Shown here: piece by piece, positions 1,261-18,267 of the stretch
Layout of the letters: each line of letters opens with the position of its first letter
How positions within the stretch are numbered: the stretch's first letter is position 1
Assembly (NCBI GenBank): GCA_963704755.1
Contig: OY969938.1
Coordinates: 1,980,001-2,012,000 of the forward strand
Source of the DNA: an uncultured Chloroflexia bacterium
GTDB lineage: Bacteria; Chloroflexota; Anaerolineae; Anaerolineales; Anaerolineaceae
Length of the DNA: 32,000 nucleotides
Reading direction: 5' to 3'
Program-made: the position numbers and the translations under genes
Notes under the pieces: generated by a model
What the model was told of the DNA's origin: nothing
Seen by the model: the letters and a program-made list of their open reading frames with translations, nothing else
Database searches by the model: none

Positions 1261-1456
1261 CGGAAAAGCAAAGCTTATCAAAATCAATCAAAAGGGTTTT
1301 TCTACGCGGGGCGATCAACAGAACCCCGATAGATTCGTGCATCAAATTTCCGGTCCCTGGGCCCATACCCGGTCAGGTAAACAGCGGCTGTTCAATTCCG
1401 GCTGCTGCCTCGCCGGGGCAATTTTCCCAGAACCAAAATTTCTCAGGAGAAGATTA

Positions 1457-3061
1457 ATGAGTACACCAGAAGAACCTAAAGGTATCAGCAGGCGAGATTT
1501 TCTTAAGGGTGCAGCAGTGGGCGCCGTTGCGGTCGCGGGCACCGGGATTATGGGCGCTTGCGCTCCCAAAGTCGCCGCCCCCACCCCAGAAGCAAGCACC
1601 CAGGCCCAGGCTTCTTTCGAAATCACCCCCGATCCCATTCCGGCCAGTGAGATCAAAACCACCGTCGATGCCGATGTCGTGATCGTCGGCGCTGGCGACA
1701 GCGGTTTGACGGCCGCATTGGCGGCCAGCGAAGCCGGGGCCAAGGTCGTGGTCATTGAAAAAAGCGAGACTTTTAACGGCCGTGGGTTTGGTAACGGGGC
1801 CATTGGCACCAAGTTTCACACCCAACAGGGCATCCAATTAGACAAGAAGAAAATTGTCAACGAATTGATGCGCTGGGCCGGAAATAAGGCCGAGCAGCCG
1901 CGCATCGAGATGTGGGCCAATCACAGCGGCGAGGTTTACGATCACATCATCGATCTGGCCACCGCCGCCGGCCTGGCAGTGACGCTATTCCCGGCCGCGG
2001 ATGATCCCGCCCTGGCTTATCCTGAATACCCCACCTGCCTGGTGTTCGGCAGCAAAATGGACCAGCTCGAGCTGCTGGGCGTCATCGAAGCCGAGGACAA
2101 AAAGAACGGCGTTGACTTCCATTATTCCATGAGCGCGGAACAGCTCGTTCGCGATTCCAGTGGGCGGGTAACGGCAGTGATCGCCTCCGACAGCACCGGC
2201 GCCTACACTCAATTCAACGCCAAGAACGGTGTCATCCTGAGCACCGGTGACTACGGTCACAACCAGGAAATGTTGGATAAATGGTGCCCCTGGGTCAAAA
2301 ACGTGGACGCCGTGATTTATACCCCCGCAGTCAACACCGGCGACGGGCACAAAATGGGTTTATGGGCCGGCGCCGCGCTGCAAGATTATCCGCATGCGGC
2401 TATGATCCACACCCTGGGTGGCGGGCCTTTGTCGATGAACCCGGGCCTGCGGGTAAATATGCTCGGTGAACGTTACGAGAACGAGGACGTCCCCAACCCC
2501 TACATCTGCAACTCGCGCATGCGCCAGCCCGGTAACGTCGTCTGGGCCGTGTACGACTCGCAATGGGCCGATACCGTGGTCAAACAGGACCCCGGCTTTG
2601 GACGCACCACTGCAGCCGATGGCGTAGCCGACAGCATCGACACCGCCGTGAAAAACGGCACCGTCTTGAAATCCGACACGGTCGAAGGACTGGCTACTGC
2701 GATGGGTGTCCCGGCGGATGCCTTGAAAGCCACCCTGGAGCGCTACACCGAACTGGCCAAGAACCAGGACGATGAAGATTTTGGTAAACGGGCAAACAAC
2801 CTGGGGCCGATCGATACCGCGCCGTTCTATGCCACCAAAGTCGCCGCCGTCCTGCTGGTCACGCTGGGTGGGCTCAAAGTCAATACCAACCTGGAAGTGC
2901 TCGACCCCGACAGCAAAGTCATCCCCGGTCTGTACGCAGCCGGTAACGTGGCCGGTGGTTTCTATGCCAACGATTACCCCGTCCTGGCAGCCGGCTTGAG
3001 CCATGGCCGCTGCATCACCGAAGGGTACCTGGCCGGCCAATCGGCTTCCAAAGCTGCCTGA
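1457..3061 (+). CDS. Tat-exported FAD-dependent oxidoreductase 1 (FAD_binding_2; fumarate reductase / urocanate reductase / KstD-like), probable lipoprotein
   Basis: ATG at 1457 lies 7 nt after AGGAGA (1445-1450). The twin-arginine motif is SRRDFLKG and the lipobox-like end of the signal is IMGAC-APK. The dinucleotide fold is VVIVGAGDSGLTAALAASEAGAKVVVIEK. The C-terminal FAD motif is IPGLYAAGNVAGGFYANDYP. Confidence 0.85.
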   Translation: MSTPEEPKGISRRDFLKGAAVGAVAVAGTGIMGACAPKVAAPTPEASTQAQASFEITPDPIPASEIKTTVDADVVIVGAGDSGLTAALAASEAGAKVVVIEKSETFNGRGFGNGAIGTKFHTQQGIQLDKKKIVNELMRWAGNKAEQPRIEMWANHSGEVYDHIIDLATAAGLAVTLFPAADDPALAYPEYPTCLVFGSKMDQLELLGVIEAEDKKNGVDFHYSMSAEQLVRDSSGRVTAVIASDSTGAYTQFNAKNGVILSTGDYGHNQEMLDKWCPWVKNVDAVIYTPAVNTGDGHKMGLWAGAALQDYPHAAMIHTLGGGPLSMNPGLRVNMLGERYENEDVPNPYICNSRMRQPGNVVWAVYDSQWADTVVKQDPGFGRTTAADGVADSIDTAVKNGTVLKSDTVEGLATAMGVPADALKATLERYTELAKNQDDEDFGKRANNLGPIDTAPFYATKVAAVLLVTLGGLKVNTNLEVLDPDSKVIPGLYAAGNVAGGFYANDYPVLAAGLSHGRCITEGYLAGQSASKAA

Positions 3062-3153
3062 GCTTTTGTTCGACCGGTGCAAGGAAAGGCCACGCCTGCC
3101 TCGCGTGAACTTGCGAGAAAGGTATAAGAGCCAAACGTAAGATTTACAAATCT

Positions 3154-3181
3154 GGGCCATGGCCGAAAGCGGCCATGGCCC
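3154..3181 (+). promoter_or_regulatory. Intercistronic stem-loop (12-bp perfect stem, 4-nt loop) between flavoenzyme 1 and cytochrome 1
   Basis: GGGCCATGGCCG-aaag-CGGCCATGGCCC. No U-tract follows, so it is unlikely to be a full terminator. Its position suggests an attenuator or mRNA processing/stability element. Confidence 0.5.
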
Positions 3182-3232
3182 ACACCATAAAATTCGGTTT
3201 ATATTCCGGTTATCCCTAAAGAATTCCCATCT

Positions 3233-3925
3233 ATGTTTAAACGAAAACCTAAAACCTCCAAAGAAATAAAGCCTGCTGAAGGCAAACCGCAGAGGAAAAA
3301 GCCCAGCCTGCTGCGCATCAGCGTGATCGCCAACATCGCCGTGGTGGTGATCGCCGTGCTGGTGGGCGTGGGCGGGATCGTCATACACGAATCCAACACC
3401 AACCCCAACTTCTGCGCCACCTGCCACATCATGCAGCGTAACGTCAGCTCCTACCAGACCTCGAGCAACCTCGATCACGTCCACGAGGAAGCCGGGGTTC
3501 AGTGCAAGGACTGCCACAACTATCCCCTCTCGGCGGAAATTACCAGCGGGGTCGATTTCCTGATCGGCAATTACACCGTCGGGGACGACGGCGAGCTGGT
3601 CCAGCGTAAGTACGATAACGATATGTGCCTCAAGTGCCACATCAGTTACGACAAAATCGCTCAACAGACCGATTATCTCGAAAAGAACCCCCACGAGAGC
3701 CATTTCAAGGACCTGCCCTGCAACACCTGCCACATCTCGCATGGCACCCAGATCGACTACTGCGCCAGTTGCCACGACAACGGCGGCCAGCGCATGGTTG
3801 GCGGTCCGATCATCCCGCGGGCGGACAATCCCTGGGCCACCGACACCGGCGACGCCAGCGCCGATCCGAATGCGCCCAGCGTTGAGCCCACCACCCCGGC
3901 CTCCGCAAGCGCGCCGCAAGGTTGA
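3233..3925 (+). CDS. Membrane-anchored pentahaem c-type cytochrome, copy 1 (NapC/NirT/NrfH-like quinol dehydrogenase type)
   Basis: There is a Lys/Arg-rich N-terminal tail and one TM helix (ISVIANIAVVVIAVLVGVGGIVI). Five CXXCH motifs follow: CATCH, CKDCH, CLKCH, CNTCH and CASCH. The first, FCATCHIM, lies just after the TM as in NapC/NrfH/CymA. The C-terminal tail is Pro/Ala/Thr-rich. Confidence 0.9.
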   Translation: MFKRKPKTSKEIKPAEGKPQRKKPSLLRISVIANIAVVVIAVLVGVGGIVIHESNTNPNFCATCHIMQRNVSSYQTSSNLDHVHEEAGVQCKDCHNYPLSAEITSGVDFLIGNYTVGDDGELVQRKYDNDMCLKCHISYDKIAQQTDYLEKNPHESHFKDLPCNTCHISHGTQIDYCASCHDNGGQRMVGGPIIPRADNPWATDTGDASADPNAPSVEPTTPASASAPQG

Positions 3926-3932
3926 AATTCTT

Positions 3933-3987
3933 CCCGAAAAAAATAAAATTGCCGGAGCATAGCTCCGGCAATTTTATTTTTTTCGGG
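3933..3987. terminator. Bidirectional intrinsic terminator (perfect 26-nt arms)
   Basis: CCCGAAAAAAATAAAATTGCCGGAGC-ata-GCTCCGGCAATTTTATTTTTTTCGGG. A GC core stem is flanked by an A-tract 5' and a T-tract 3' on both strands. It starts 8 nt after the cytochrome stop. Confidence 0.8.
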
Positions 3988-4008
3988 ATCCTTTAAAGCG
4001 GCCGGCAT

Positions 4009-4862
4009 GGCAGAACCCTGGCTATTAAGCCAGCTTCTGCCAATAAGGAGACCCACGCAGGTGGGTCTTTGTGTCCTTGTAGGTGCAGTTTCAACTGCTG
4101 CGGCCGGGTCAATACCCCGTTTTCTACCTCAGCGATTCGCATGCCAAACGCTCTCCCGGCTTTGAAAGCCGGGCTACGAGGACCGTCACGGCGTTTTGGA
4201 TGAGTAGCTCGGGTTTCCAACCCGAGAAAACGCCGGCCCGGCAGAATTTCGTCTATAAAGCCAGCTTCTGCCCAAAAGGAGACCCACGCAGGTGGGTCTT
4301 TGTGTCCTTGTAGGTGCAGTTTCAACTGCTACGGCCGGGTCAATGCCTTGTTTTCTACCTCGGCGATACGCAAGCCAAACACTCTCCCGGCTTTGAAAGC
4401 CGGGCTACGAAAACCTTTTCGGCGCACCGGGTGGGTAGCTCGGGTTTCTAACCCGAGAAAGCGCCGGCCAAACGTTCTCCCGGCTTTGAAAGCCGGGCTA
4501 CAAAGGAGGGCATAGGGTTTCGGATGAGTAGCTCGGGTTTCCAACCCGAGAAAGCGCCGGCCCGGCAGAATTTCGTCTATAAGGCCAGCTTTTGCCAAAA
4601 AGGAGACCCACGCAGGTGGGTCTTTGTGTCCTTGTAGGTGCAGTTTCAACTGCTACGTCTGGGTCAATGCCCCGTTTTCTACCTCAGCGATTCGCATACT
4701 AAACGCTCTCCCGGCTTCGAAAGCCGGGCTACGAGGACCGTCACGGCGTTTTGGATGAGTAGCTCGGGTTTCTAACCCGAGAAAGCGCCGGCCCGGCAGA
4801 ATTTCGTCTATTAGGCCAGGTTCTGCCAAAAAGGAGACCCACGCAGGTGGGTCTTTGTGTCC
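4009..4862 (+). repeat. Repeat array A: tandem mosaic multi-hairpin units (231, 324 and 231 bp)
   Basis: The GACCCAC-GCAG-GTGGGTC hairpin recurs at 4050, 4281, 4605 and 4836. Each unit also carries these hairpins: GGCAGAA..CTGGCT..AGCCAG..TTCTGCC, GTAGGTGCAG-TTTCAA-CTGCTAC, CCCGGCTT-tga-AAGCCGGG and CTCGGGTT-tcya-AACCCGAG. The middle unit has an internal duplication of the last two modules. Confidence 0.9.
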
Positions 4863-4912
4863 TTTCCCCATTCGATGAATTATAATGAGTACCGATCCGA
4901 AAACTGTTTTGG

Positions 4913-6685
4913 TTGTTTGGATTGGGCGGCCTGGCCGCCCAATTCAAACAACCAAAAATTATTGTCCTGCTCATAGATCCCGTGCAAAATTCCAGCGACC
5001 CCATAGAAGAAGAAACCGCCCAGCCAATCGAGAATGATTTGGGGGATTACGCGCGCCAGTTGGAGGCCTCGGCCAGGTTCAATTCGGCCATGCGCCAGGC
5101 CAAATCGCGCCGGCACGCCCTCGAGATCTTGCTCAACCTGACCCTGGAGGCTTTTTCCGCGGATATCGCCGGTGTGTATGACCTGAAGGGCTCAAAACTG
5201 ATTTACAACTCCGGGCTGGGGCTGACCATCGACCCGCCGGATGAGCTCAGCGCGGATTCGAGCAACGTGCTCGGCCGGAGCATCAATTCCGACTGCGTCC
5301 TCTTTTTCGACACAGACGAATCCTCGGAGGAGGACTGCGATTTCTGCGGCTTCCTGCTGCGCCAAAAAATGAAATCGCTGCTGGTCATTCCCCTGCGGAC
5401 GACTGATGACGCGATCGGCGTATGGTTCATCGCCCTGCGCCACCCGATTAGCCTGACGGCCAACGTCGAGCAGTTGTTGAGCACATTTTCCGAAGCGGCC
5501 GGCAACACCCTCCAGCGCTTCATGGTCATGGAGGAACTCGAGCATAACGTCGCCATCCGCGAAAAAGAGCTGGGCATCCTCTACAAAATCATGACCATTG
5601 CCGGCGAGACCGGCGAGACCCAAACTCTGCTCGACCAATCGCTGGATACGACCCTGCAAGGCGTGGGCTGTTCGACCGGCGTGATCCACCTGTACGACCC
5701 GTACGAGAAACGCTTGAAGATTATCATCCGCAAAGAATTTCCGGATGAATTATTAACTTTTTTGGAACTCTCTTCCCAGACAGATCGGCTATGGATGCAG
5801 GTATTCAACAGCCAGAAGCGAGTCCAGTACGCCAACATTCCCATCCGTTCATTCCCGGAGAACCCATCTTCCACCCCCCTGGCAACCGGCTACCTGGGCT
5901 TTCCGATCCGGGCCAAGAATATCAGCATCGGCGTGCTCAGCCTGTTCGGCGACCCGGAGCACCTGCTGGACCCGACCATCGTCCAGATTGTCAGCTCGGT
6001 CACCGACCAGCTCGGGCTGGCTTACGAAAATGTGCAGTTGCGCAAACAGGCCGAAAACGCAGTCGTCCTTCAGGAACGGCAGCGGTTGGCCCGCAATCTT
6101 CACGACTCGGTTTCGCAATCGCTGTACGCGCTGGTCATCTCAGCCGACGTCAGCAAAAAGCTGCTGCGCCTCAAAGACTACCCGCACCTGCGCGAACAAT
6201 TGAGCGACATCGGCAAAGTCGCCATCATGGCGCTCAAAGAAATGCGCCTGATGCTTTTCGAGCTGCGTCCCTCCTTCCTCGGCGACGAAGGACTGATCGG
6301 GGCCCTGGAACTGCGCCTGAACACGGTCGAGCGACGGGCCGGGATCGACGCTAACCTGATTTTTGACGAACCTTTCAAGCTGCCCCCCTTCATCGAGCAG
6401 GAAGTCTACCACATCGCCATCGAAGGGTTGAACAATTCCTTGAAACACGCTGAAGCGACCAACGTGGTGATCACCATGAAAGTAAAGCCCCGTTCCTTCT
6501 GGATGGAAATCCAGGACAACGGAATCGGTTTCGATTATTCCAATGTCAGCGCCACCGGCGGGATCGGGTTGAGCAGCATGAAAGAACGCACCCTGGGCTT
6601 GAGCGGAAAGGTCGATTTCATCTCGAACCCGGGCAGCGGAACCATCGTCCATCTGGAAATACCGATCGATCCCGAACGCCAATAG
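4913..6685 (+). CDS. Cytoplasmic sensor histidine kinase with tandem GAF-like domains + HisKA_3 + HATPase_c
   Basis: The H-box is RQRLARNLHDSVSQSLYAL. The N, G1 and G2 boxes are EGLNNSLKHAEAT, QDNGIGFD and GGIGLSSMKERT. I see no hydrophobic TM segment. The start is uncertain: the TTG at 4913 is the longest option and the first ATG is at 5090. Confidence 0.85.
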   Translation: MFGLGGLAAQFKQPKIIVLLIDPVQNSSDPIEEETAQPIENDLGDYARQLEASARFNSAMRQAKSRRHALEILLNLTLEAFSADIAGVYDLKGSKLIYNSGLGLTIDPPDELSADSSNVLGRSINSDCVLFFDTDESSEEDCDFCGFLLRQKMKSLLVIPLRTTDDAIGVWFIALRHPISLTANVEQLLSTFSEAAGNTLQRFMVMEELEHNVAIREKELGILYKIMTIAGETGETQTLLDQSLDTTLQGVGCSTGVIHLYDPYEKRLKIIIRKEFPDELLTFLELSSQTDRLWMQVFNSQKRVQYANIPIRSFPENPSSTPLATGYLGFPIRAKNISIGVLSLFGDPEHLLDPTIVQIVSSVTDQLGLAYENVQLRKQAENAVVLQERQRLARNLHDSVSQSLYALVISADVSKKLLRLKDYPHLREQLSDIGKVAIMALKEMRLMLFELRPSFLGDEGLIGALELRLNTVERRAGIDANLIFDEPFKLPPFIEQEVYHIAIEGLNNSLKHAEATNVVITMKVKPRSFWMEIQDNGIGFDYSNVSATGGIGLSSMKERTLGLSGKVDFISNPGSGTIVHLEIPIDPERQ

Positions 6686-6698
6686 AGAAGGACAAAGC

Positions 6699-7379
6699 AT
6701 GGGCCGAAATATCATTCGAGTACTGGTCGTTGACGACCATCCCATCGTACGGCGGGGGTTATGCGCCGAAATCAACCTGGATCCGGAAATGCAGGTGGTC
6801 GCCGAAGCCAAAGACGGTAAAGAGGCGGTCGAAATGGCCAGGATCCTCCAGCCGGATGTGATCTTGATGGACGCTGTGATGCCGCGTAAAAACGGCATTG
6901 AAGCCACCACCGAGATCATCCAGGAAAACCCCCTCGCGCGGGTATTGATCCTGACCAGCTTTACCGAGGACGAAAAAATCTACGCCGCCATCAAAGCCGG
7001 GGCGCTGGGTTACATTCTTAAGGATAAAGATCCCGAGGAAGTTCTCCAGGCCATCCGCGATACCTACAACGGCAAGCCCTACCTCAATCCCAACATCGCC
7101 CGGCGCTTGTTTCGCCAGCTGCACGACCAGTATTCCCTGTCTCCCGAAACAATATTGACGCCGCGCGAATTGGACGTCCTGCGCCTGGTCGCCATGGGCA
7201 CCCCCAACAAAGAAATCGCCCAAAAGATCAACGTGCAGGAAGCTACCGTGCGGGCGCATGTCAGCAATATTCTCAGCAAATTAAACCTGGCCAACCGCTC
7301 GCAACTGGTGCTGTACGCCGTCAAAAAGGGCTTGATTGAACCCAACTCGGATGAAAATATCGATCCCACTATGCTTTAG
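6699..7379 (+). CDS. NarL/FixJ-family response regulator (REC + LuxR-type HTH)
   Basis: ATG at 6699 follows GAGAAGGA. The REC motifs are VLVVDDHP..ILMDAVMPRKNG..VLILTS. The HTH is LTPRELDVLRLVAMGTPNKEIAQKINVQEATVRAHVSNILSKL. Confidence 0.9.
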   Translation: MGRNIIRVLVVDDHPIVRRGLCAEINLDPEMQVVAEAKDGKEAVEMARILQPDVILMDAVMPRKNGIEATTEIIQENPLARVLILTSFTEDEKIYAAIKAGALGYILKDKDPEEVLQAIRDTYNGKPYLNPNIARRLFRQLHDQYSLSPETILTPRELDVLRLVAMGTPNKEIAQKINVQEATVRAHVSNILSKLNLANRSQLVLYAVKKGLIEPNSDENIDPTML

Positions 7380-7583
7380 CGCGCTTCCGAGCCAGACCAG
7401 CCCTCTTTCGCGACCGTCTCTTTCCCCCTCTAAACGTTTGTTTAATTTATTTTAATCATCCGCTTATTCTGGATTAATCTTTTACCCAGATAAAGACTCG
7501 CTTTTCCCCCATAGGATTGTGTGCATTATTTCACTAATATAGTAAGCGTGCCTCATTTTTAATGTTCCTCAGGCAGAGCAAGA

Positions 7584-7609
7584 AAATTTGCACCTATTTT
7601 AGCAAATAT
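7584..7609. promoter_or_regulatory. Inverted repeat AAATTTGC-N10-GCAAATAT, candidate operator/promoter element upstream of flavoenzyme 2
   Basis: The arms match at 7 of 8 positions, in the AT-rich leader about 35-55 nt upstream of the 7642 ATG. It shares the TTTGC/GCAAA core with the 1228-1260 repeat. Confidence 0.3.
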
Positions 7610-7641
7610 TTCGCAGCACATCCGTTTGGAGAGGAAAAAGC

Positions 7642-9288
7642 ATGAGTTTTGAAGAGAAAGAACCCAATATTGTCTCACGTAGAACTTTCCTGAAGAAGAC
7701 CGCTATGATCGGCGCCGGCCTGGCAGCGGCCACCACGTTGAATGCGTGCGCCCCGAAACAGGCCGGGGTTGCTTCGTCAAAGCAGCCCAAGTGGGATAAA
7801 GAAGTGGATGTTCTGGTCCTGGGATCAGGCACGGCTTCGATGGCCGCTATCGCCGCAAAAGACGCCGGGGCCGAAAAAGTCACCATCATCGAAAAAGGCC
7901 CGGCCTTTGGGGGTACTTCGGCGCTATCGGGTGGCGGAATGTGGATCCCCAACAATTATTTGATGCAGGCCCAGGGGATCGAGGACAACAAGGCCGATGC
8001 CCTTAAATACTTGCAGAACGTCACCGGCGGCCAATCGAATGACGAGCTCATGAATGCTTACCTGGACAACGCTCCCAAGCTGTTGGAGTGGCTGCGCGAC
8101 AAATTCGGCTTCGAGTTTGCCCTGGGCGGTTCAGCTTACAATGATTATTACCAGGTACCGGGATACCGGCCGTTTGGCCGCTCGATTTATTTCGCTAAAG
8201 ACGGCGCTTCCGTCGGCGGCGCCGGTGGCTGGCAGGTCGTCCGCGCGACCTGTGACAAATTGGGGATCGAGATCCTGCTCAACACGACCGGCAAGCAACT
8301 GTATACCAATGATGACGGAGAAGTCATTGGTGTGCTGGCCACCGGCCAGGACGGGACTGACATCGCCATCCACGCGACCAAGGGTGTCATCATCGGTACC
8401 GGCGGTTTTGACTACAACAAAGACATGACCATGGCGTTCCTGCGCGGGCCGGTTATGGCCAGCGTGGCCGTGCAGACCAACACCGGCGACGGCCACCTGA
8501 TGGGTATGGCCATCGGCGCCGATCTGCGTAACATGAACGAGAGCTGGGGCCTGCCCTTCTTCCCCCTCGACCTGGACAAGATGCAGGGTGAGGCCGACTG
8601 GCAGGTGTATCGTGGAAAACCGGGCGCGGTTGTGGTCAACAAATACGGCGAGCGCATCGGTAACGAAGCCTGCGCTTACGACCTCTTCCAGCGCTCCTTC
8701 TACTACTGGGATTCGGGTAAATTCGAATGGCGCAACATCCCGGCTTACTTCATCTGTGATTCGACCTTCCCGGCCAATTACCCCATGCCGGGCGCCAATT
8801 ACAAGATGGGCGTGATCGCGGATTGGATGAAACCCTACGATACCCTGGAAGACCTGGCCAAGGATATGGGCATCGATGTCGACGGGCTGAACGCTACCCT
8901 GGCCGTCTTCAACGAGAACGCCAAGAATGGCGTGGATCCCATCTGGCACCGCGGCGAATACGACTTCGACAAGGGTACCGCCGGCGACCAGAGCGGCAAC
9001 CGCACCGACCTGAAGAACAACTGCCTGGCCCCGATCGAAACCGGGCCTTTCTATGCTGCCCAGTACGTACCGGGCACCTGCGGCACCAACGGCGGGCTGC
9101 GCATCAACGGCAGCGCCCAGGTATTGGATGTTTGGGGCAAACCGATCCCGCGCTTATACGCCGTCGGCAACACCTCCTCCTCTGTGATGGGCGCGGCCTA
9201 TCCGGGTGGCGGCTCGACCGTAGGGGCAGGAAGCGTCATGGGCATGCTCGCCGGCCAGCATGCAGCCAGCCTGGAAGCGCTCGACTAA
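7642..9288 (+). CDS. Tat-exported FAD-dependent oxidoreductase 2 (FAD_binding_2, KstD-like), probable lipoprotein
   Basis: ATG at 7642 follows GGAGAGGAAAAAG. The Tat motif is SRRTFLKK and the lipobox-like end of the signal is TLNAC-APK. The dinucleotide fold is VLVLGSGTASMAAIAAKDAGAEKVTIIEKGPAFGGTSALSGGGMW. The C-terminal motif IPRLYAVGNTSSSVMGAAYPGGGSTVG is typical of 3-ketosteroid-dehydrogenase-like flavoenzymes. Confidence 0.9.
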   Translation: MSFEEKEPNIVSRRTFLKKTAMIGAGLAAATTLNACAPKQAGVASSKQPKWDKEVDVLVLGSGTASMAAIAAKDAGAEKVTIIEKGPAFGGTSALSGGGMWIPNNYLMQAQGIEDNKADALKYLQNVTGGQSNDELMNAYLDNAPKLLEWLRDKFGFEFALGGSAYNDYYQVPGYRPFGRSIYFAKDGASVGGAGGWQVVRATCDKLGIEILLNTTGKQLYTNDDGEVIGVLATGQDGTDIAIHATKGVIIGTGGFDYNKDMTMAFLRGPVMASVAVQTNTGDGHLMGMAIGADLRNMNESWGLPFFPLDLDKMQGEADWQVYRGKPGAVVVNKYGERIGNEACAYDLFQRSFYYWDSGKFEWRNIPAYFICDSTFPANYPMPGANYKMGVIADWMKPYDTLEDLAKDMGIDVDGLNATLAVFNENAKNGVDPIWHRGEYDFDKGTAGDQSGNRTDLKNNCLAPIETGPFYAAQYVPGTCGTNGGLRINGSAQVLDVWGKPIPRLYAVGNTSSSVMGAAYPGGGSTVGAGSVMGMLAGQHAASLEALD

Positions 9289-9302
9289 GAAGATGATGCA
9301 TG

Positions 9303-9332
9303 GAGGGGAAAGTGTTAACGCACTTTCCCCTC
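9303..9332 (+). promoter_or_regulatory. Intercistronic stem-loop (12-bp stem) directly after flavoenzyme 2
   Basis: GAGGGGAAAGTG-ttaacg-CACTTTCCCCTC starts 15 nt after the stop codon, with no U-tract. It occupies the same position as the 3154-3181 hairpin but has an unrelated sequence. Confidence 0.5.
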
Positions 9333-9532
9333 ATAAAGAACGGTCTTCTGGGGCTTTCCGACTGAAGTCATACCGTAACCGCTCAGGCATATCGTAAGAA
9401 GTTCCCGGATTTGCGAGGTTTGTAGTTGCCGGCCTCGCCAATCCCTCAAATCCGGAAGGCTTACCCATCCGTTCGAGCGGGTACATTTTACAGTTCTTGG
9501 GCGTCAAAAATTCTTCATCGAGGAAAAGCTGA

Positions 9533-10237
9533 GTGAAACTCTTTAGAATACAACTATTTAAAAGAAAAGAAAAATCACCTGACTCAGATTCAGGTGAACA
9601 AAAGAGGAAAAAGCCCAGCCTGCTGCGCATCAGCGTGATCGCCAACATCGCCGTGGTGGTGATCGCCGTGCTGGTGGGCGTGGGCGGGATCGTCATACAC
9701 GAATCCAACACCAACCCCAACTTCTGCGCCACCTGCCACATCATGCAGCGCAACGTCAGCTCCTACCAGACCTCGAGCAACCTCGATCACGTTCACGAGG
9801 AAGCCGGGGTTCAGTGCAAGGACTGCCACAACTATCCCCTCTCGGCCGAAATTACCAGCGGGGTCGATTTCCTGATCGGCAATTACACCGTTGGCGATGA
9901 CGGCGAGCTGGTCCAGCGCAAGTACGATAACGATATGTGCCTCAAGTGCCACATCAGTTACGATCACGTCGCCCAGCAGACCGATTACCTGGAAAAGAAC
10001 CCCCACGAGAGCCATTTTAAGGACCTGCCCTGCAATACCTGCCATATCTCGCATGGCACCCAGATCGACTACTGCGCCAGTTGCCACGACAACGGCGGCC
10101 AGCGCATGGTCGGCGGAGCGATCATCCCGCGGGCGGACAATCCCTGGGCCACCGACACCGGCGACACCAGCGCCGATCCGAATGCGCCCAGCGTCGAACC
10201 CACCACCCCAGCGTCCGCAAGCGCGCCGCAAGGTTGA
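9533..10237 (+). CDS. Membrane-anchored pentahaem c-type cytochrome, copy 2
   Basis: It has the same TM helix and five CXXCH motifs as copy 1. The ATG used by copies 1 and 3 is CTA here (..QLFKRKEK..). The best start is therefore the GTG at 9533, 7-12 nt after AGGAAAA, and this remains uncertain. Confidence 0.85.
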   Translation: MKLFRIQLFKRKEKSPDSDSGEQKRKKPSLLRISVIANIAVVVIAVLVGVGGIVIHESNTNPNFCATCHIMQRNVSSYQTSSNLDHVHEEAGVQCKDCHNYPLSAEITSGVDFLIGNYTVGDDGELVQRKYDNDMCLKCHISYDHVAQQTDYLEKNPHESHFKDLPCNTCHISHGTQIDYCASCHDNGGQRMVGGAIIPRADNPWATDTGDTSADPNAPSVEPTTPASASAPQG

Positions 10238-10244
10238 AATTCTT

Positions 10245-10299
10245 CCCGAAAAAAATAAAATTGCCGGAGCATAGCTCCGGCAATTTTATTTTTTTCGGG
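10245..10299. terminator. Bidirectional intrinsic terminator, identical to 3933-3987
   Basis: Same 26-nt-arm palindrome with an ata loop, starting 8 nt after the cytochrome stop. Confidence 0.8.
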
Positions 10300-10320
10300 A
10301 TCCTTTAAAGCGGCCGGCCT

Positions 10321-11230
10321 GGCAGAACCCTGGCGATTAAGCCAGCTTCTGCCAATAAGGAGACCCACGCAGGTGGGTCTTTGTGTCCTTGTAGGTGCAT
10401 TTTCAACTGCTACGGCCGGGTCAATGCCTTGTTTTCTACCTCGGCGATACGCAAGCCAAACGCTACAAAGGAGGAACAGGGGTTTTTTATTGTTTTGTGT
10501 GCTTCGCACACAAAACAATAAAAAACCCCCTATCTTAGCGGCCAGCATGGCAGAACCCTGGCTATAAAGCCAGCTTCTGCCAAAAAGGAGACCCACGCAG
10601 GTGGGTCTTTGTGTCCTTGTAGGTGCAGCTTTAGCTGCTACGGCCGGGTCAATGCCCCGTTTTCTACCTCGGCGATACGCAAGCCAAACGCTCTCCCGGC
10701 TTCGAAAGCCGGGCTACGAGGGCCGCTGCGGCGTTTTGGATGGGTAGCTCGGGTTTCTAACCCGAGAAAGCGGCCGACCTGGCAGAATCCTGGCTATAAG
10801 GCCAGCTTCTGCCAAAAAGGAGACCCACGCAGGTGGGTCTTTGTGTCCTTGTAGGTGCAGTTTCAACTGCTACGGCCGGGTCAATGCCCCGTTTTCTACC
10901 TCGGCGATACGCAAGCCAAACGCTCTCCCGGCTTCGAAAGCCGGGCTACGAGGGCCGCTGCGGCGTTTTGGATGGGTAGCTCGGGTTTCTAACCCGAGAA
11001 AGCGGCCGACCTGGCAGAATCCTGGCTACAAGGCCAGCTTCTGCCAAAAAGGAGACCCTCGCAGGCGGGTCTTTGTGCCCTTGTAGGTGCAGCTTTAGCT
11101 GCTACGGCCGGGTCAATGCCCCGTTTTCTACCTCGACGATACGCAAGCCAAACGCTACAAAGGAGGAACAGGGGTTTTTTATTGTTTTGTGTGCTTCGCA
11201 CACAAAACAATAAAAAACCCCCTATCTTAG
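10321..11230 (+). repeat. Repeat array B: mosaic multi-hairpin units (230, 230 and 234 bp) punctuated by two copies of a long AT-rich palindrome
   Basis: The GACCCAC hairpin recurs at 10360, 10590 and 10820, and as the variant GACCCTC..GCGGGTC at 11054. The palindrome GGGGTTTTTTATTGTTTTGTGTGC-ttc-GCACACAAAACAATAAAAAACCCC occurs at 10479-10529 and 11171-11221. Confidence 0.9.
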
Positions 11231-11256
11231 GTACAATAAACCATTGCCGGAATTCT

Positions 11257-14046
11257 TTAAAGCAGGCTTAATTCCCTGGCGCGCTCGATCACCATCCGGC
11301 GGGAATGGCCGCCCATTTTGCGGTAGATGCTCTTCAAATGGGCCTTGGTGGTATTGACCGAGATCATCAGCACCGCGGCAATCTCCTTGGTCGGTTTTCC
11401 GGCAGCTAACAGACCCAACACCTCGATTTCCCGTTCACTTAAGGGCTCGGCTACCGGCGCGACAAAGGAAGTCTTGATCCGGCATTTTGTGGAAGAGGGG
11501 CTAACTTTTACGGAAAATGGATCGAAAGCCGCGATCAATTTACGCAGATAATCCGCCTGCCCGGCCTTATCTTTACCGGCGCCGCCATCCAGGTATATCG
11601 ACAAATACGCTTCCAGTAGATCCCTGACCGGCTCACCTTCCAGGGTGAAGATGCGGATATACCCCTCCGGTGCGGCGAGCTGCACCGCCCGCGCGATCGT
11701 TTCAATGGCCAGGTCCAGATCACCTTTGGCTTGCTGCGCCTGTGCCAGCAAGATCAACCCTTCCAGCCGGCGTTCGTTCGAATCGGTGTCGCCAATTTCG
11801 ACCAACATTTCCAGCAGCGCCTGCTCCGCTTGTGAGAACTTGTGCTGGGCCAGGTAAATCCGGCCCAGGGCTGCCTGCCGGGTTGCCTTGGCGATCCGCG
11901 TTAAGGTGAACGACGCCAGTTCTTCCGTCAGCAGCACGTCCGCCTCGGCCGCCCTGCCATCCGCCAGCCAGTAACCCACCAGCACGTCGGTCACCTCGGA
12001 GGTATAGATCCATTCGAAGGAGTGCAGGATTTTCTTGCGGGCCTGCTGCAAGAAAAGGTTACCCCGCTCACGGTCGCCCACGTACAAATGGAATTTCGCC
12101 AGGCGCAGGTTCAGGATCACCCCATAATGCCAGGGTAAAGTACTGATGTCGATTGGATCGATTTTCTGGAGCCATTCTTTCAAAGGAGCCAGGTCGGCCG
12201 GAAGCTCGTTCCGCTCCAGGGCGATGCCCATCAAGCCGCATTGGGCAAATAAACAGGCGCTTTCATCCAGAGTCTGGCTGACCGTCAAATCCAACGCGTG
12301 GCGGTATTCTTCCGCGGCATCCTTTAGCCGGCCCTGGTACTTGCGGATCCTGGCCAGGCCGCAGGAAGTATGGACCGATTGGAGCACGTGCTTATTCCGC
12401 CAGGCGAAATTGCGGCCCTCTTCCAACGCCCCGGCGGCGGCTTGGAGATCGATAAACAATTCGTACGCCTCGGCCAGGTTGAAGTTCATAAACCCGTAGA
12501 AATACTTGTCCGCTTTGGGCGTGTCCCGCTGCAAATCGATGATTTCGCAAATACAGCGCTCGTAATCCTGGCAAAGGCAATTCATTACCGCCCGCAAGGC
12601 AGACACTTCCCATTTCAGGTAGGGCTCATCCGGGACAAACCGGTTTTCCTGTTTGGCTTTTTGGAGGGCCTGTTCGACGATTTGCAGCTTGGGCTCGATT
12701 TGTTCGAACCGGCCCAGCTCGAAGCTGGCCAGTACGTAATGGATGCCCAGGTTGGGATGTTTGGCGATCAAATCGTCCGAGAAATAGGCCACCCAATCCA
12801 CCAGGCTGGTCAGGTCAGCCTCGACAATCGCCTGAAAGGCACAGGCATCCGCGATTTCGGCGGCCCTTTCCAGGTCGTTGGCGGCCACCGCATGGATCAC
12901 AGCTTTGTCGGGGTAACCATTTTCGCTTAGCCAGATGCAGGCTTTGCGGTGCAGCTCCCGGGTAATGCCCGGGGAGGTCCGTTCCAGTTGCACCCGCAGG
13001 ACATCGGCGAACAGAGAGTGGTAGCGATACCAGTTCAGGCGGTTATCGATCGGCTGGATGAACAGGTTGGCCCGCACGATCCGGTCCAACAGCTCGCTGC
13101 TGTCCGTGCGGCCGAGCAGGTCATTGCATAGGGGCGCGGATAGCTCGTTCAAAATCGAAGTCTTGAGCAGGAATTCCTTGATTTCGCTGCTCTGCTGGTT
13201 CAAAACTTCTTCGGCCAGGTAATCGAAAGCCTTGGCAAAGCCGGCCGATTGGTTTTCACGGTCGTAGCGGAACCCGCCCTGGCTTTGGCTCGATAGGGCC
13301 GCCAGTTGCAACCCGGCGATCCAACCCTCGGTCGCTTCGACCAGCCTGGCGACCTGGTCATGCTGCATATCCAGGGCCATGACGTCCTTGATAAAGGCTT
13401 CGGCCTCGTCCATCGTAAAAGACAGGTCGGCGGAGGTTACTTCCAGCAGTTGGTGCTTGGTACGCAGCCGGGAGAGTGGAATGGGCGGCACCACCCGGCT
13501 GGCAATGATCAGGTGCAGGTTGTTGGGCTGGTGACTGATCAGGTAATCCAGGCTCTGGTGGATTTTCACATCGGTGACAGAGTGATAATCATCCAGAATG
13601 AGGCAAAGCGGTTCCGGCATTTGGGCGATTTCGTTGAACAAAGGGTTCAGCCCAATCAGGTCCAACTCGCCGCCATTTTGAAACAGGTCCAGGGGATTGA
13701 AGCGCAGCCGCGGATAGACCCTTTTAATGGCCGCAGCGACGTACGACCAGAACCGCAGCGGGGTATTGTCAAAGAGATCCAGGGTTACCCAGGCAGCCCG
13801 CCAGAAGGATGGCAGAGCTTCCGAAAGCCATTCGACCAGCAGGGTGGTCTTGCCATAACCGGCCGGGGCGATGACCAGCGTCACCCCATTTTCGATCTCT
13901 CCTTGCAAGCGGGAAGTCAGGCGTCCCCTTTGGACGATTTGATAATTTAACAGCGGAATATCCAGCTTGGTGGCCAGCAGGTCGCCGAGTTGGTGAGAAA
14001 CAGCCAATTTATTTTGTTTTTCAATCGTTGTAGGAAAATTGCTCAA
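11257..14046 (-). CDS. MalT/LuxR-type STAND transcriptional regulator (AAA/NB-ARC-like ATPase + helical/TPR-like sensor + LuxR HTH)
   Basis: Walker A is APAGYGKTTLL and Walker B is CLILDDYH. There is a long helical repeat region. The C-terminal HTH is LSEREIEVLGLLAAGKPTKEIAAVLMISVNTTKAHLKSIYRKMG. No ATG lies near the 5' end, so the TTG at 14046 is taken as the start and the exact start is uncertain. Confidence 0.85.
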   Translation of the reverse strand: MSNFPTTIEKQNKLAVSHQLGDLLATKLDIPLLNYQIVQRGRLTSRLQGEIENGVTLVIAPAGYGKTTLLVEWLSEALPSFWRAAWVTLDLFDNTPLRFWSYVAAAIKRVYPRLRFNPLDLFQNGGELDLIGLNPLFNEIAQMPEPLCLILDDYHSVTDVKIHQSLDYLISHQPNNLHLIIASRVVPPIPLSRLRTKHQLLEVTSADLSFTMDEAEAFIKDVMALDMQHDQVARLVEATEGWIAGLQLAALSSQSQGGFRYDRENQSAGFAKAFDYLAEEVLNQQSSEIKEFLLKTSILNELSAPLCNDLLGRTDSSELLDRIVRANLFIQPIDNRLNWYRYHSLFADVLRVQLERTSPGITRELHRKACIWLSENGYPDKAVIHAVAANDLERAAEIADACAFQAIVEADLTSLVDWVAYFSDDLIAKHPNLGIHYVLASFELGRFEQIEPKLQIVEQALQKAKQENRFVPDEPYLKWEVSALRAVMNCLCQDYERCICEIIDLQRDTPKADKYFYGFMNFNLAEAYELFIDLQAAAGALEEGRNFAWRNKHVLQSVHTSCGLARIRKYQGRLKDAAEEYRHALDLTVSQTLDESACLFAQCGLMGIALERNELPADLAPLKEWLQKIDPIDISTLPWHYGVILNLRLAKFHLYVGDRERGNLFLQQARKKILHSFEWIYTSEVTDVLVGYWLADGRAAEADVLLTEELASFTLTRIAKATRQAALGRIYLAQHKFSQAEQALLEMLVEIGDTDSNERRLEGLILLAQAQQAKGDLDLAIETIARAVQLAAPEGYIRIFTLEGEPVRDLLEAYLSIYLDGGAGKDKAGQADYLRKLIAAFDPFSVKVSPSSTKCRIKTSFVAPVAEPLSEREIEVLGLLAAGKPTKEIAAVLMISVNTTKAHLKSIYRKMGGHSRRMVIERARELSLL

Positions 14047-14651
14047 GTTACAGATCTCAAAGAAATAATGGCTTCATTGGTCGGATACAGTTTTAAAGAA
14101 AAAGGAGGCCTTTTTCGGAAAGCAAGTGAATGCTCCCCCTCAAAAGCGTCTCCTCTGATAAGCGCAAAACCTTTGTAACCACGCGATCCCGTTGGGGTAT
14201 CCCAACTTAAATTTGATGAGCGGTTCCAAAAGTCCACAATATCTAACGGGTTAATTGTACAACACATCGATAACCCTCGTAACCACCCATAAATAACCCT
14301 ATCAGGGTGATTACTGTCCCTATTTAGCTGGCTATACTTTAGCCTAGATTAAAAACAGGTTAGTAATTGCCAAAAGAATAACGAGATCAGTACCCAGTCT
14401 GGGTTGAAAACGCCGGCAAACGCGTGACCCTTTGATAAATCCTGGGGGATGGGTATTGGGGAGGTGGGGTTGCGCAAAACGCAACCGCACCTCCCTTTAC
14501 GCCTTTCCCATCGAAAGCGGCAGCCAAGCTGGCCTTTTACTGGTTACGTGTTGAAACACCGTTTATCACTCCCTTGAAAGTAGTTCCACCCCGGCCGAAA
14601 GCGCCGGCATCCTGAGCGCCGCCATGGCAGCCAAGAAATAGAAAAGGCAAA

Positions 14652-15335
14652 ATGTTCAAACGAAAACCCAAAACCCCCGAAGAAGTAAAGCCTGCTGAAG
14701 ACGAGCCCAAGAAGAAAAAGCCCAGCCTGCTGCGCATCAGCGTGATCGCCAACATCGCCGTGGTGGTGATCGCCGTGCTGGTGGGCGTGGGCGGGATCGT
14801 CATACACGAATCCAACACCAACCCCAACTTCTGCGCCACCTGCCACATCATGCAGCGTAACGTCAGCTCCTACCAGACCTCGAGCAACCTCGATCACGTC
14901 CACGAGGAAGCCGGGGTTCAGTGCAAGGACTGCCACAACTATCCCCTCTCGGCCGAAATTACCAGCGGGGTCGATTTCCTGATCGGCAATTACACCGTTG
15001 GCGATGACGGCGAGCTGGTCCAGCGTAAGTACGATAACGATATGTGCCTCAAGTGCCACATCAGTTACGATAAAATCGCTCAACAGACCGATTATCTCGA
15101 AAAGAACCCCCACGAGAGCCATTTCAAGGACCTGCCCTGCAATACCTGCCACATCTCGCATGGCACCCAGATCGACTACTGCGCCAGTTGCCACGACAAC
15201 GGCGGCCAGCGCATGGTTGGCGGACCGATCATTCCGCGGGCGGACAATCCCTGGGCCACCGATACCGGCGCCGATTCGAATGCGCCCAGCGTTGAGCCCA
15301 CCACCCCAGCCTCCGCAAGCGCGCCGCAAGGGTAA
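14652..15335 (+). CDS. Membrane-anchored pentahaem c-type cytochrome, copy 3 (orphan: no adjacent flavoenzyme)
   Basis: ATG at 14652. The protein is identical to copy 1 from KKPSLL through ATDTG, with five CXXCH motifs. Only the N-terminal cytoplasmic tail and the C-terminal tail differ. Confidence 0.9.
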   Translation: MFKRKPKTPEEVKPAEDEPKKKKPSLLRISVIANIAVVVIAVLVGVGGIVIHESNTNPNFCATCHIMQRNVSSYQTSSNLDHVHEEAGVQCKDCHNYPLSAEITSGVDFLIGNYTVGDDGELVQRKYDNDMCLKCHISYDKIAQQTDYLEKNPHESHFKDLPCNTCHISHGTQIDYCASCHDNGGQRMVGGPIIPRADNPWATDTGADSNAPSVEPTTPASASAPQG

Positions 15336-15346
15336 AGTTAGACCAT

Positions 15347-15399
15347 CCCGAAAATAAAAAATTGCCGGAGTTGCACTCCGGCAATTTTTTATTTTCGGG
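15347..15399. terminator. Bidirectional intrinsic terminator, variant of 3933-3987 with compensatory changes
   Basis: CCCGAAAATAAAAAATTGCCGGAGT-tgc-ACTCCGGCAATTTTTTATTTTCGGG. The arms are still perfectly complementary although both the stem top and the A/T-tract differ from copies 1 and 2. Confidence 0.8.
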
Positions 15400-15429
15400 G
15401 TTACTGCTCAACCAGGTTCAAAAGATATG

Positions 15430-15690
15430 GGGGTGTTTTATAGTTTTTGGTGTGCGAAGCACACCAAAAACTATAAAACACCCCTGTTTCCCTATGGTAG
15501 CGCCGACCTGGCAGAATTTCGTCTATAAGGCCAGCTTCTGACAATAAGGAGACCCACGCAGGTGGGTCTTTGTGTCCTTGTAGGTGCAGTTTCAACTGCT
15601 ACGGCCGGGTCAATGCCCCGTTTTCTACCTCAGCGATTCGCATACCAAACGCTCTCCCGGCTTTGAAAGCCGGGCTACGAAAACCTTTTT
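15430..15690 (+). repeat. Repeat block C: AT-rich long palindrome (variant, inverted) plus one partial mosaic unit
   Basis: The 26-nt arms GGGGTGTTTTATAGTTTTTGGTGTGC-gaa-GCACACCAAAAACTATAAAACACCCC span 15430-15484. They are followed by the GGCAGAA.. module, the GACCCAC hairpin at 15551, the GTAG..CTAC module and the CCCGGCTTTGAAAGCCGGG module. Confidence 0.85.
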
Positions 15691-15692
15691 GG

Positions 15693-16436
15693 CTATCTTT
15701 TCCCCACGCGCATATAAATCTGCCAGGTCACCTGGCGAGGGCGGGCCGGATCGCCCCATAACCCGGCCAGGGGTTCCCAAATTTCTTCCAGGGGATGCCA
15801 GCCGGTCTGCTCCAGATAACGCTGCGAAGCTGACCAACTGGATAGAAACCCGCAGAATTGGTCCAGGGTCCAATCGGCCTGCATCCCCAGCGCAGGCGGT
15901 GCCACTTCTGCAAACGGGAAGGGCAGAGTGCGATAACTTTCGGCTACATAATGGTAGCGCTCGGGCCAGTAATCGGCCAACACCCGGTTGTGATAATCCA
16001 GGGTCACCTGGTCGATTTCGGGGCCGATGCGCGGGAAACTGTAGCCCCACACCGCCAGGGCTCCGCCTGGCTTCAACACTCGCTTGACTTCTGGGTAGAA
16101 GCGGTCGTGGTCGAACCAGTGCACGGCGATGGCTACCGTGACCAGGTCGCAGCACGCGTCCGGCAGGGCAGCCTTTTCGGCCGGGCCGACCTGGTATTCC
16201 ACCCCTGGGTGAGGCTGCGCCCGGCGGATCTGTTCCCGGCTGGCGTCGGTAGCAAAGACGCGCTCGAAGTGCGGCGCCAGCCCGATGGCGGCCTGGCCAT
16301 TGCCGGTGCCGCAGTCCCAGGCCAGCTCGTGGGCCGGGGTAAGCGAGGCCAGGTAAGCAAACAAGGCCGGCGGATAATGCGGGCGATAGCGGGAATAATT
16401 CCCGGCCAATTGCGAAAAATGGTCTTGAAAGCTCAT
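15693..16436 (-). CDS. Class I SAM-dependent methyltransferase
   Basis: ATG at 16436. The SAM-binding motif I is AWDCGTGNGQAA, followed by the Methyltransf_11-like LKPGGALAVW. There is a 4-nt ATGA overlap with the upstream LLM gene. Confidence 0.85.
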   Translation of the reverse strand: MSFQDHFSQLAGNYSRYRPHYPPALFAYLASLTPAHELAWDCGTGNGQAAIGLAPHFERVFATDASREQIRRAQPHPGVEYQVGPAEKAALPDACCDLVTVAIAVHWFDHDRFYPEVKRVLKPGGALAVWGYSFPRIGPEIDQVTLDYHNRVLADYWPERYHYVAESYRTLPFPFAEVAPPALGMQADWTLDQFCGFLSSWSASQRYLEQTGWHPLEEIWEPLAGLWGDPARPRQVTWQIYMRVGKR

Positions 16437-17471: not shown

Positions 17472-17703
17472 GCTGTTAGCTGTTAGCGATTAGCTCTTAG
17501 CTGTTGGCGGATTGCGGTAGGTTGGGTTGCGGGCTCATTTATTCCGCCGGCATGCGAAGAGGCTTTCGCTTTTACCGGGCTTTGCCCGTAACCCAACAAC
17601 AGGCGCCCGGCCGGCACGGGCCCGCCCTCACCCCAACCCCTCTCCCAAAAACGGGAGAGGGGCTAAGCTAATAGCCAAATGCTAACCGCTAACAGCTAAC
17701 AGC
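17472..17703. repeat. Nested-palindrome (MITE-like) element E1 with heptamer-repeat termini
   Basis: The 17-bp perfect terminal inverted repeat is GCTGTTAGCTGTTAGCG (17472-17488) paired with CGCTAACAGCTAACAGC (17687-17703). The termini are (GTTAGCN)n heptamer runs. An inner inverted repeat is GTTGGGTTGCGGGC/GCCCGTAACCCAAC. There is also an internal hairpin CCCCTCTCCC-aaaaac-GGGAGAGGGG. Confidence 0.75.
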
Positions 17704-17706
17704 TAA

Positions 17707-18045: not shown

Positions 18046-18267
18046 GTTAGCGGTTAGCTTTTAGCAGTTAGCTTTTGGCAATTAGCTTTTAGCAGTTAGC
18101 CGTTAGCGGTTAGCCTGGAGGTTGCGTTCAGCGGCGTTGGCACGAGCAATGCTATGGTTATACATAGGTTATAAACCTTCCCAGGGCTCTACGCCACAGC
18201 GGTTTTCCCTCACCCCAACCCCTCTCCCAGAAACGGGAGAGGGGCTAAGAGCTAAAAGCTAACCGCT
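18046..18267. repeat. Nested-palindrome (MITE-like) element E2 with heptamer-repeat termini
   Basis: Ten consecutive heptamers of the GTTAGCN type start at 18046. The 17-bp perfect terminal inverted repeat is AGCGGTTAGCTTTTAGC (18049-18065) paired with GCTAAAAGCTAACCGCT (18251-18267). It has the same internal motif as E1: CCTCACCCCAACCCCTCTCCCAGAAACGGGAGAGGGGCTAAG. Confidence 0.75.

Follow-up and report, generated by a model that had tools for sequence, protein, structure and literature searches.

Concerted evolution of protein-coding genes is a known process in bacteria. A survey by Wang and Chen (2018; PMC6053082) reported 26 genes with long-lasting concerted evolution, 17 of which encode a product in the same complex or pathway as another member of the set, and subunit balance was invoked as the reason. 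Here we describe a clean new example of this process in a 32,000-nt stretch of DNA from an uncultured Chloroflexia bacterium (contig OY969938.1 of assembly GCA_963704755.1, positions 1,980,001 to 2,012,000), hereafter the window, which carries three nearly identical copies of a gene for a five-haem cytochrome. We compared the window with known cases of interlocus conversion, namely tufA/tufB, the rrn operons, amoCAB/haoAB/cycAB in Nitrosomonadales and psbA/psbD. As in these cases, paralogues within the genome are closer to each other than to their orthologues, silent sites included, and the pattern recurs in related lineages. Unlike the genes of the survey, however, the cytochrome subunit alone has been homogenised here, whereas the two catalytic partners share 27% identity and a separate regulator is encoded in each operon.

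The window resembles the Cgr1/Cgr2 system of Eggerthella lenta in that a NapC/NirT-like multihaem cytochrome stands beside a reductase of the FAD_binding_2 family, exported via twin-arginine translocation (Tat), and a LuxR-type regulator. Cytochrome copies 1 and 2 have this gene neighbourhood, of which only the regulator is present at copy 3. In contrast to Cgr1/Cgr2, the host belongs to the phylum Chloroflexota (Anaerolineae-like) and the flavoenzyme gene precedes the cytochrome gene. Cgr1 has a 91.75% identical paralogue, Elen_2528, while the nearest homologues of Cgr2 are less than 28% identical (Koppel et al. 2018; PMC5953540). This is the same asymmetry as in the window, although gene conversion was not invoked for the pair in E. 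lenta. A second parallel is Fcc3/Ifc3 of Shewanella: the partner is an Fcc3-like flavoenzyme, and the C-terminal three-haem region of the cytochrome (residues 119-192) matches the Shewanella Fcc3 haem domain in the PDB (E about 1e-6). Fcc3, however, is a soluble protein that has haem domain and flavoenzyme in one chain, whereas the window encodes a separate, membrane-anchored five-haem protein. In Shewanella, one CymA feeds many terminal reductases; CymA is a single hub gene, whereas the window has several homogenised and possibly interchangeable cytochrome genes. Finally, Little et al. (bioRxiv 10.1101/2022.12.26.521950) reported, for gut Eggerthellaceae, Erysipelotrichaceae and Burkholderiaceae, secreted PF00890 reductases encoded beside two-component or helix-turn-helix (HTH) regulators, through which each reductase is induced with its own electron acceptor. 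The window is like these respiratory arsenals in having secreted flavin reductases with dedicated regulators; the evolution of the cytochrome partner was not addressed there. The window probably holds three substrate-inducible reductase modules of the Cgr1/Cgr2 type, each with a regulator and a membrane-anchored, putatively quinol-side five-haem cytochrome, and two of them with a Tat-exported flavoenzyme as well. The cytochromes may be interchangeable quinol-to-flavoenzyme carriers, whose homogenisation would cost nothing and may be favoured.

The three cytochrome genes are all in direct orientation and at most 11.4 kb apart. In module 1 (plus strand), flavoenzyme 1 (1337-3061) and cytochrome copy 1 (3233-3925) follow a LuxR-type response regulator (53-1000). 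Module 2, on the same strand, opens with a GAF histidine kinase (4913-6685), after which come a response regulator (6699-7379), flavoenzyme 2 (7642-9288) and copy 2 (9533-10237). In module 3, copy 3 lies on the plus strand (14652-15335) and is accompanied by a MalT-like LuxR regulator on the other strand (11257-14046). A tblastn search with five flavoenzymes as queries found no flavoenzyme or remnant near copy 3, which is an orphan cytochrome with a regulator as its only neighbour of this kind. A preliminary description of this DNA, made by eye, had proposed three five-haem cytochrome genes that undergo concerted evolution by gene conversion while their partners diverge. We confirm three plus-strand open reading frames (ORFs) with five CxxCH motifs each. 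The divergence of the partners holds for the flavoenzymes (1 vs 2, 27% identical) and for the response regulators of loci 1 and 2 (38%), but not for copy 3, which has no flavoenzyme; only two such enzymes exist in the window.

An exact three-way nucleotide alignment identified the homogenised block as 3296-3925 in copy 1, 9608-10237 in copy 2 and 14715-15335 in copy 3 (all plus strand), with 96.0-98.5% nucleotide identity over about 630 nt. Chance resemblance of the copies is excluded, because the blocks are hundreds of bases long at 96-98.5% identity. The block varies by 31 events, that is 30 substitutions, 24 of them at codon position 3, and one 9-nt in-frame deletion; copy 2 alone accounts for 17 of the events, copy 1 for 8, and copy 3 for 6, among them the deletion. 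As the preliminary description had counted, copies 1 and 3 differ by 9 substitutions in the first ~560 nt, and the 8 that fall within the 176-codon core are all synonymous. Its estimate of about 25 differences for copy 2 was equally accurate: we find 25 events relative to copy 1, among them the amino acid changes K>H, I>V, P>A and A>T in copy 2. The short strings that it named as common to pairs of copies were also verified in the sequence.

Silent sites separate the cytochromes from their neighbours. Synonymous divergence (dS) is 0.07 for copies 1-3, 0.10 for copies 2-3 and 0.17 for copies 1-2, with nonsynonymous divergence (dN) of 0, 0.01 and 0.01, respectively. Orthologous flanking genes, taken from locus L040 of the comparison genome introduced below, reach a dS of 1.07 (dN 0.19) for the flavoenzymes (Fl2 vs L040) and 1.79 (dN 0.19) for the response regulators (RR1 vs L040), and the two paralogous flavoenzymes of the window (Fl1 vs Fl2) reach 1.66 (dN 0.77). 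The ratio dN/dS is at most 0.09 in the cytochromes, and purifying selection on the cytochrome protein is strong.

The nearest comparison genome, OY969772.1 (5.37 Mb), is an Anaerolineae-like metagenome-assembled genome (MAG) with five cytochrome copies scattered across the chromosome at distances of no less than 0.28 Mb, at loci that include L002, L003, L004 and L040. Nucleotide identity among cytochromes is 96.0-98.5% within the window, 80.5-95.8% within OY969772.1 and 71.6-75.8% between the two genomes, and in a neighbour-joining tree the cytochromes form one clade per genome, each with 100% bootstrap support. The kinase-regulator-flavoenzyme-cytochrome order of L040 is that of module 2, and the two loci share 73.9% amino acid identity in the flavoenzyme, 74% in the regulator and 50-58% in the kinase. 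Flavoenzyme 2 is at most 35% identical to any compared flavoenzyme other than that of L040, and flavoenzyme pairs within a genome are all at most 37% identical. The locus 2 operon can thus be taken as firmly orthologous to L040. Judged from these alignments and trees, the cytochromes have been homogenised since the split from the nearest available relative, and the partner genes have kept ancient locus-specific sequences.

We propose that gene conversion among pre-existing cytochrome genes homogenised the three copies while their partners kept the old sequences, and we hold this to be probable with considerable confidence. The concerted evolution suggested earlier is supported because the cytochromes cluster by genome while the flanks of locus 2 have clear orthologues, because dS between the paralogues is 0.07-0.17 as against at least 1.07 for orthologous flanks and 1.66 for paralogous flavoenzymes, because the boundaries of homology are specific to each pair and the closest pair changes along the gene, and because changes specific to a single copy cluster along the sequence (max-chi2 p = 0.003; rank test p = 0.002).

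Low silent divergence could also arise if selection on silent sites, through codon bias, mRNA structure or an antisense gene, kept old paralogues alike with no exchange of DNA. Two observations fit this idea: long antisense ORFs lie across all three copies, and in the comparison of the two genomes the cytochromes have a dS (0.69-0.78) below the values of the flanking genes. However, cytochrome paralogues in three other genomes have a dS of 0.4-1.3, some of the OY969772.1 copies differ from each other by 0.63-0.67, and the paralogues P0008 and P0034, apparently on the source contig itself, are only 61-65% identical. Given these dS values elsewhere and the divergence of P0008 and P0034, silent sites do not seem to be generally constrained in the cytochrome family. 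The identity of copies 1 and 2 also runs on through a non-coding terminator, sharp boundaries would not be expected from such selection, and the antisense ORFs match no Pfam family. We consider silent-site selection an extremely unlikely explanation.

Evidence for exchange within the window comes from the distribution of differences along the genes. Divergence was tabulated for pairs 1-2, 1-3 and 2-3 in copy 1 coordinates. In the 5' tail (3233-3295) it is 38.9, 17.5 and 42.6%, respectively; in the first 143 nt of the core (3296-3438) it is 0% for every pair; in the next 375 nt (3439-3813) it is 5.6, 1.9 and 3.7%; in the C-terminal tail (3814-3925) it is 4.5, 5.8 and 7.8%; and in the terminator (3926-4006) it is 0, 27.4 and 27.4%. 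The three site patterns are heterogeneous across segments (chi2 p = 2.4e-9), and the absence of any variable site from the first 143 of 630 nt has a probability of 3.4e-4. Changes specific to copy 3 are confined to positions from 3814 onward (Fisher p = 2.9e-4; rank test p = 0.002), and the max-chi2 test for pair 1-2 (p = 0.003) places a break after 3806. The closest pair is (1,3) before ~3814 and (1,2) after it.

The boundaries of homology differ between pairs as well. For pairs 1-2 and 2-3 the boundary lies in frame inside the gene, at ~3290, and the claim that the first ~60 nt are unrelated is correct for copy 2. It does not hold for copies 1 and 3, which are homologous from the ATG with 82.5% identity over the first 63 nt. 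At the other end, the terminator and at least 200 bp of downstream repeat had been described as common to copies 1 and 2; the terminator is indeed identical, and ~96-98% identity continues to ~4130 in the repeat. The upstream junction lies inside an existing gene, because copies 1 and 3 keep the MFKRKPK start of the family and copy 2 has a remodelled tail.

We polarised the variable sites with the five copies of the relative. Of the 14 core sites at which copy 2 is unique, 10 have the outgroup base in that copy. Copies 1 and 3 therefore share derived states, including the HV to KI cluster, and the neighbour-joining tree groups them with 96% bootstrap support. Only one polarised site (3724) groups copies 2 and 3, and the sites unique to copy 1 are mostly ambiguous because silent sites are near saturation between the genomes. 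The patchwork of shared variants that the preliminary description had read as a sign of conversion does not serve as such: a biallelic site in three sequences amounts to a change on one terminal branch, so any pattern in three sequences fits a tree. Tree-like structure combined with a divergence comparable to that of the flanking genes had been named as evidence against conversion; the first of these largely applies, but the copies are far less diverged than the genes around them, and the refutation fails on this second point.

Several points weigh against our interpretation. The core is close to tree-like, ((1,3),2), and the pairwise homoplasy index (PHI) test on the three copies with one outgroup, which has low power, is not significant (p = 0.2-1.0). 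Within the window the signal of conversion therefore rests on boundaries and segment heterogeneity, without incompatible sites. Orthology with the relative is firm for locus 2 only: flavoenzyme 1 is 55% identical to that of L004 with the gene order inverted, and at locus 3, which has no flavoenzyme, a 44% identical regulator is the single basis for orthology. The comparison also covers one reasonably close genome at ~74% amino acid identity, so the conversion events are poorly dated.

The simplest competing account is recent duplication without conversion, in which the cytochrome gene, its terminator and the first repeat unit were copied to two new sites with little time to diverge. The tree-like core fits this account, as do the absence of a partner enzyme at copy 3, the common phase of all three repeat arrays after the terminator, and the homology between copies 1 and 3, which covers exactly one gene cassette that starts at the ATG, takes in the terminator and reaches into the first repeat unit. 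However, the cytochrome at locus 2 predates the split of the two genomes, as L040 demonstrates, and MalT-type regulators adjoin cytochromes in OY969772.1 too. Duplication also predicts neither the in-frame boundary of pairs 1-2 and 2-3 within the gene at ~3290, nor a 5' tail divergence of 39-43% that is far above the core silent divergence of 10-17%, nor a tail that is 17.5% diverged in pair 1-3 against 1.9% in the core, nor the switch of closest pair from (1,3) to (1,2) at ~3814. As an account of all three copies it is improbable. Recent duplication may be the origin of one copy, most plausibly copy 3, but it can account neither for locus 2 nor for the in-frame junction, nor for the change of closest pair along the gene.

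The same phenomenon is seen in the independent genome. The OY969772.1 homology block begins at the same Lys-Lys-Pro codons as in the window, with unrelated flanks, and a PHI test on its five copies is significant (p = 0.001). The MalT-like regulator of module 3 is 44% identical to the cytochrome-adjacent regulators in L002 and L004. At these two loci MalT-type regulators stand beside cytochrome-flavoenzyme pairs in either gene order, and L003 has a cytochrome apparently without a nearby flavoenzyme.

We suggest that gene conversion would have proceeded by repeated non-reciprocal homologous recombination between existing cytochrome genes, presumably interlocus conversion of the RecA type. Tracts would begin in the conserved core and end where identity runs out. 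On the 5' side they would reach no further than the Lys-Lys-Pro codons that immediately precede the transmembrane helix, since too much divergence has built up in the N-terminal tail and in the DNA upstream; on the 3' side the limit would be the stop codon in pair 1-3 and, in pair 1-2, the terminator and repeat array that both copies have. At least three layers of events may be distinguished: one involving all three copies, which would account for the lineage-specific C-terminal extension and the identical 143-nt tract; one between copies 1 and 3, for the derived core changes and the 5' tail; and one between copies 1 and 2, for the terminator and the start of the repeat. The repeat arrays, being in the same phase, may have served as a 3' homology anchor.

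These arrays and the hairpins that precede them deserve a description of their own. Copy 1 is followed by a terminator-like hairpin at 3933-3987 with a perfect 27-bp palindrome (fold -43.6 kcal/mol, z = -11), copy 2 by an identical hairpin at 10245-10299, and copy 3 by a 25-bp hairpin at 15347-15399, all on the plus strand. The copy 3 hairpin differs from the other two on both arms with pairing kept. A terminator scanner missed these long palindromes, which were confirmed by folding. The arrays, also on the plus strand, are built of a ~232-nt unit, with about 3.9 units in array 1 (3972-4887), about 4 in array 2 (10284-11230) and about 1.3 in array 3 (15502-15801, also delimited as 15473-15801), which has the same phase as the others. 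Two related palindromic inserts of ~53 nt lie inside array 2 (~10478-10530 and ~11170-11222, plus strand), and an extra 56-nt palindromic insert lies between the copy 3 terminator and its repeat (15429-15484, plus strand). At a fourth site (22140-23080) the modules are reshuffled with GC-rich CCCCTCCCC/GGGGAGGGG hairpins. The unit itself is modular and hairpin-rich (minimum free energy -100.7 kcal/mol, z = -5.5), and a few of its hairpin pairs show two-sided changes. No Rfam family matched the repeat at gathering score, and matches at the E-value threshold were weak and at chance level. The arrays contain no tRNA-like genes, and their ORFs match no Pfam family. The repeat is absent from the OY969772.1 loci, and two Joint Genome Institute (JGI) metagenome scans with conserved repeat motifs returned none. 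It resembles mosaic elements of the BIME/REP type (bacterial interspersed mosaic elements and repetitive extragenic palindromes). The palindromes form a set of 52-56 nt, perfect, with G/C-clamped ends, AT-rich arms and a GC-rich core, and three of them follow cytochromes. The cytochrome terminators may themselves be modules of the mosaic repeat, because other palindromes sit within or before repeat units.

Because three of the four arrays directly follow cytochromes (P about 0.002, a rough value that assumes ~25 intergenic sites), a mobile mosaic repeat could be imagined to have carried the 3' part of the cytochrome with it as a transduction-like cassette. However, there is no transposase or recombinase nearby, OY969772.1 is homogenised without this repeat, and in-frame replacement within existing genes needs homology, which is to say conversion. 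We regard a mobile cassette as very improbable.

Equally, the three copies could have been duplicated or homogenised artificially during assembly or polishing. Frameshift errors are obvious in the nearest relative, which is a long-read MAG, and a search of a contig index found no independent contig with any of the three exact proteins, both of which are consistent with an artefact. In the window, however, each copy has unique flanks with different intact genes, the large genes are all intact, and third-position differences together with an in-frame 9-nt deletion look like evolution under selection, unlike sequencing error; the recurrence in an independent genome also speaks for real sequence. 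An artefact is therefore very unlikely. The errors in OY969772.1 are single-base frameshifts at about 9983-9987 in L040, at 9522-9558 in L002 and at 6080-6090 in L040. They split the cytochrome, a flavoenzyme and a kinase and are typical of long-read consensus errors, so the gene calls of this genome and the odd-length members of the 90% cluster (138-182 aa) are unreliable.

In the cytochromes themselves the N-terminal tail is short and charged and is followed by a single transmembrane helix; then come the five CxxCH motifs (residues 61, 91, 132, 163 and 177 in copy 1) and a C-terminal extension rich in Pro, Ala, Ser and Thr. Residues 30-95 match the NapC/NirT family (Pfam PF03264, Cytochrom_NNT; 34.4 bits vs a cut-off of 24.1) and the C-terminal half matches Pfam Cytochrom_c3_2. 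The curated full-length models for four-haem NapC, NirT and NrfH proteins do not fit these proteins, in which five CxxCH motifs are counted (TIGR02161 napC_nirT, 26 vs a cut-off of 310 bits; TIGR03153 NrfH, 50 vs 134 bits). The best-scoring NCBIfam model is Cgr1 (NF051471, equivalog), at 60.2 bits against a cut-off of 340. In the AlphaFold2 model, helix 26-56 is predicted with a local confidence score (pLDDT) of 88-97, but the whole model is poor (mean pLDDT 63), and a Foldseek search of the PDB with it gave meaningless matches only.

The translations are 230 aa for copy 1, 234 aa for copy 2 and 227 aa for copy 3, which carries the 9-nt in-frame deletion in its tail. The N-terminal MFKRKPK motif, which is family-wide and also present in the relative and in paralogue P0008, is kept in copies 1 and 3. 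Copy 2 differs from both: CTA replaces the family ATG, and the MFKRK motif reads QLFKRK (9533-9607). Copy 2 appears to start at an upstream GTG preceded by a ribosome-binding site, GAGGAAAA. We tried the N-terminal tails as markers of locus identity and rejected them: the tail of the L040 cytochrome is unlike that of copy 2, so the tails evolve too fast to prove positional orthology. On the minus strand, the antisense ORFs run across the cytochromes at 2360-3919, 9590-10231 and 14544-15329, and one of them is 519 aa long. Stops in the codon-aligned antisense frame require TTA, CTA or TCA in the sense strand. These ORFs are probably open by chance, on the assumption that the three codons are rare in the cytochrome genes.

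The neighbouring genes were assigned by Pfam. The response regulator of locus 1 (Response_reg and GerE) has its best relative in L003 (64% identity) and probably has its true start near 311. Flavoenzyme 1 (FAD_binding_2 and TAT_signal) likely starts at the ATG near 1457. Both flavoenzymes carry a twin-arginine motif, SRRDFLKG in flavoenzyme 1 and SRRTFLKK in flavoenzyme 2 (FAD_binding_2), followed by a lipobox-like Cys (GAC and NAC; 1457-1580 and 7642-7760), which suggests that they are Tat-exported lipoproteins. All NCBIfam scores are below cut-off for both enzymes: the best match of flavoenzyme 1 is vinyl phenol reductase/flavocytochrome c, and flavoenzyme 2 resembles 3-ketosteroid dehydrogenase. 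The kinase of locus 2 has GAF-GAF-HisKA_3 architecture, and the response regulator next to it is LuxR-type. A 20-bp perfect hairpin at 4909-4955 lies between repeat array 1 and the kinase. Because this hairpin overlaps the TTG start that was assigned mechanically to the kinase ORF, the real start is probably further downstream. The MalT-like regulator is a STAND/TPR protein (TPR_MalT and GerE; NCBIfam MalT 382 bits vs a cut-off of 537) that is divergent to copy 3, and the two genes have 600 nt of upstream region in common (14047 onward).

Two further regions of the window stand apart from the modules. A 112-aa ORF on the minus strand (17707-18045) without a Pfam match lies within 17630-18255, flanked by inverted runs of GCTAAC-type heptamers (17667-17706 and 18046-18114) and by a ~45-nt direct repeat with the hairpin CCCCTCTCCC...GGGAGAGGGG near 17630 and 18210. 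Between 24001 and 25000 the GC content is 46%, as against 55-64% elsewhere, around a 135-aa ORF (24592-24999) that also has no Pfam match.

Taken as gene conversion, the pattern at this locus means that, in a respiratory enzyme of two parts, one subunit is kept uniform by recombination and the catalytic subunits, like the regulators, diverge freely. A tentative extension, which we consider possible but rather doubtful, is that homogenisation is itself selected: many substrate-specific secreted flavin reductases would share a common cytochrome interface, with concerted evolution limited to the cytochrome subunit and each operon keeping its own copy for co-regulation, and the pattern would recur independently here, in the relative and in E. 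lenta (Cgr1 and Elen_2528). If true, this would run against the view of prokaryotic concerted evolution in which all subunits are balanced together. For short-read metagenome assembly and for orthology calling, our findings advise caution in this cytochrome family. More directly, they suggest that the cytochromes of Cgr-like reductase modules are interchangeable, so that one cytochrome may serve many reductases in heterologous expression. In the annotation of reductase arsenals, cytochrome phylogeny will not track the specificity of the enzymes.

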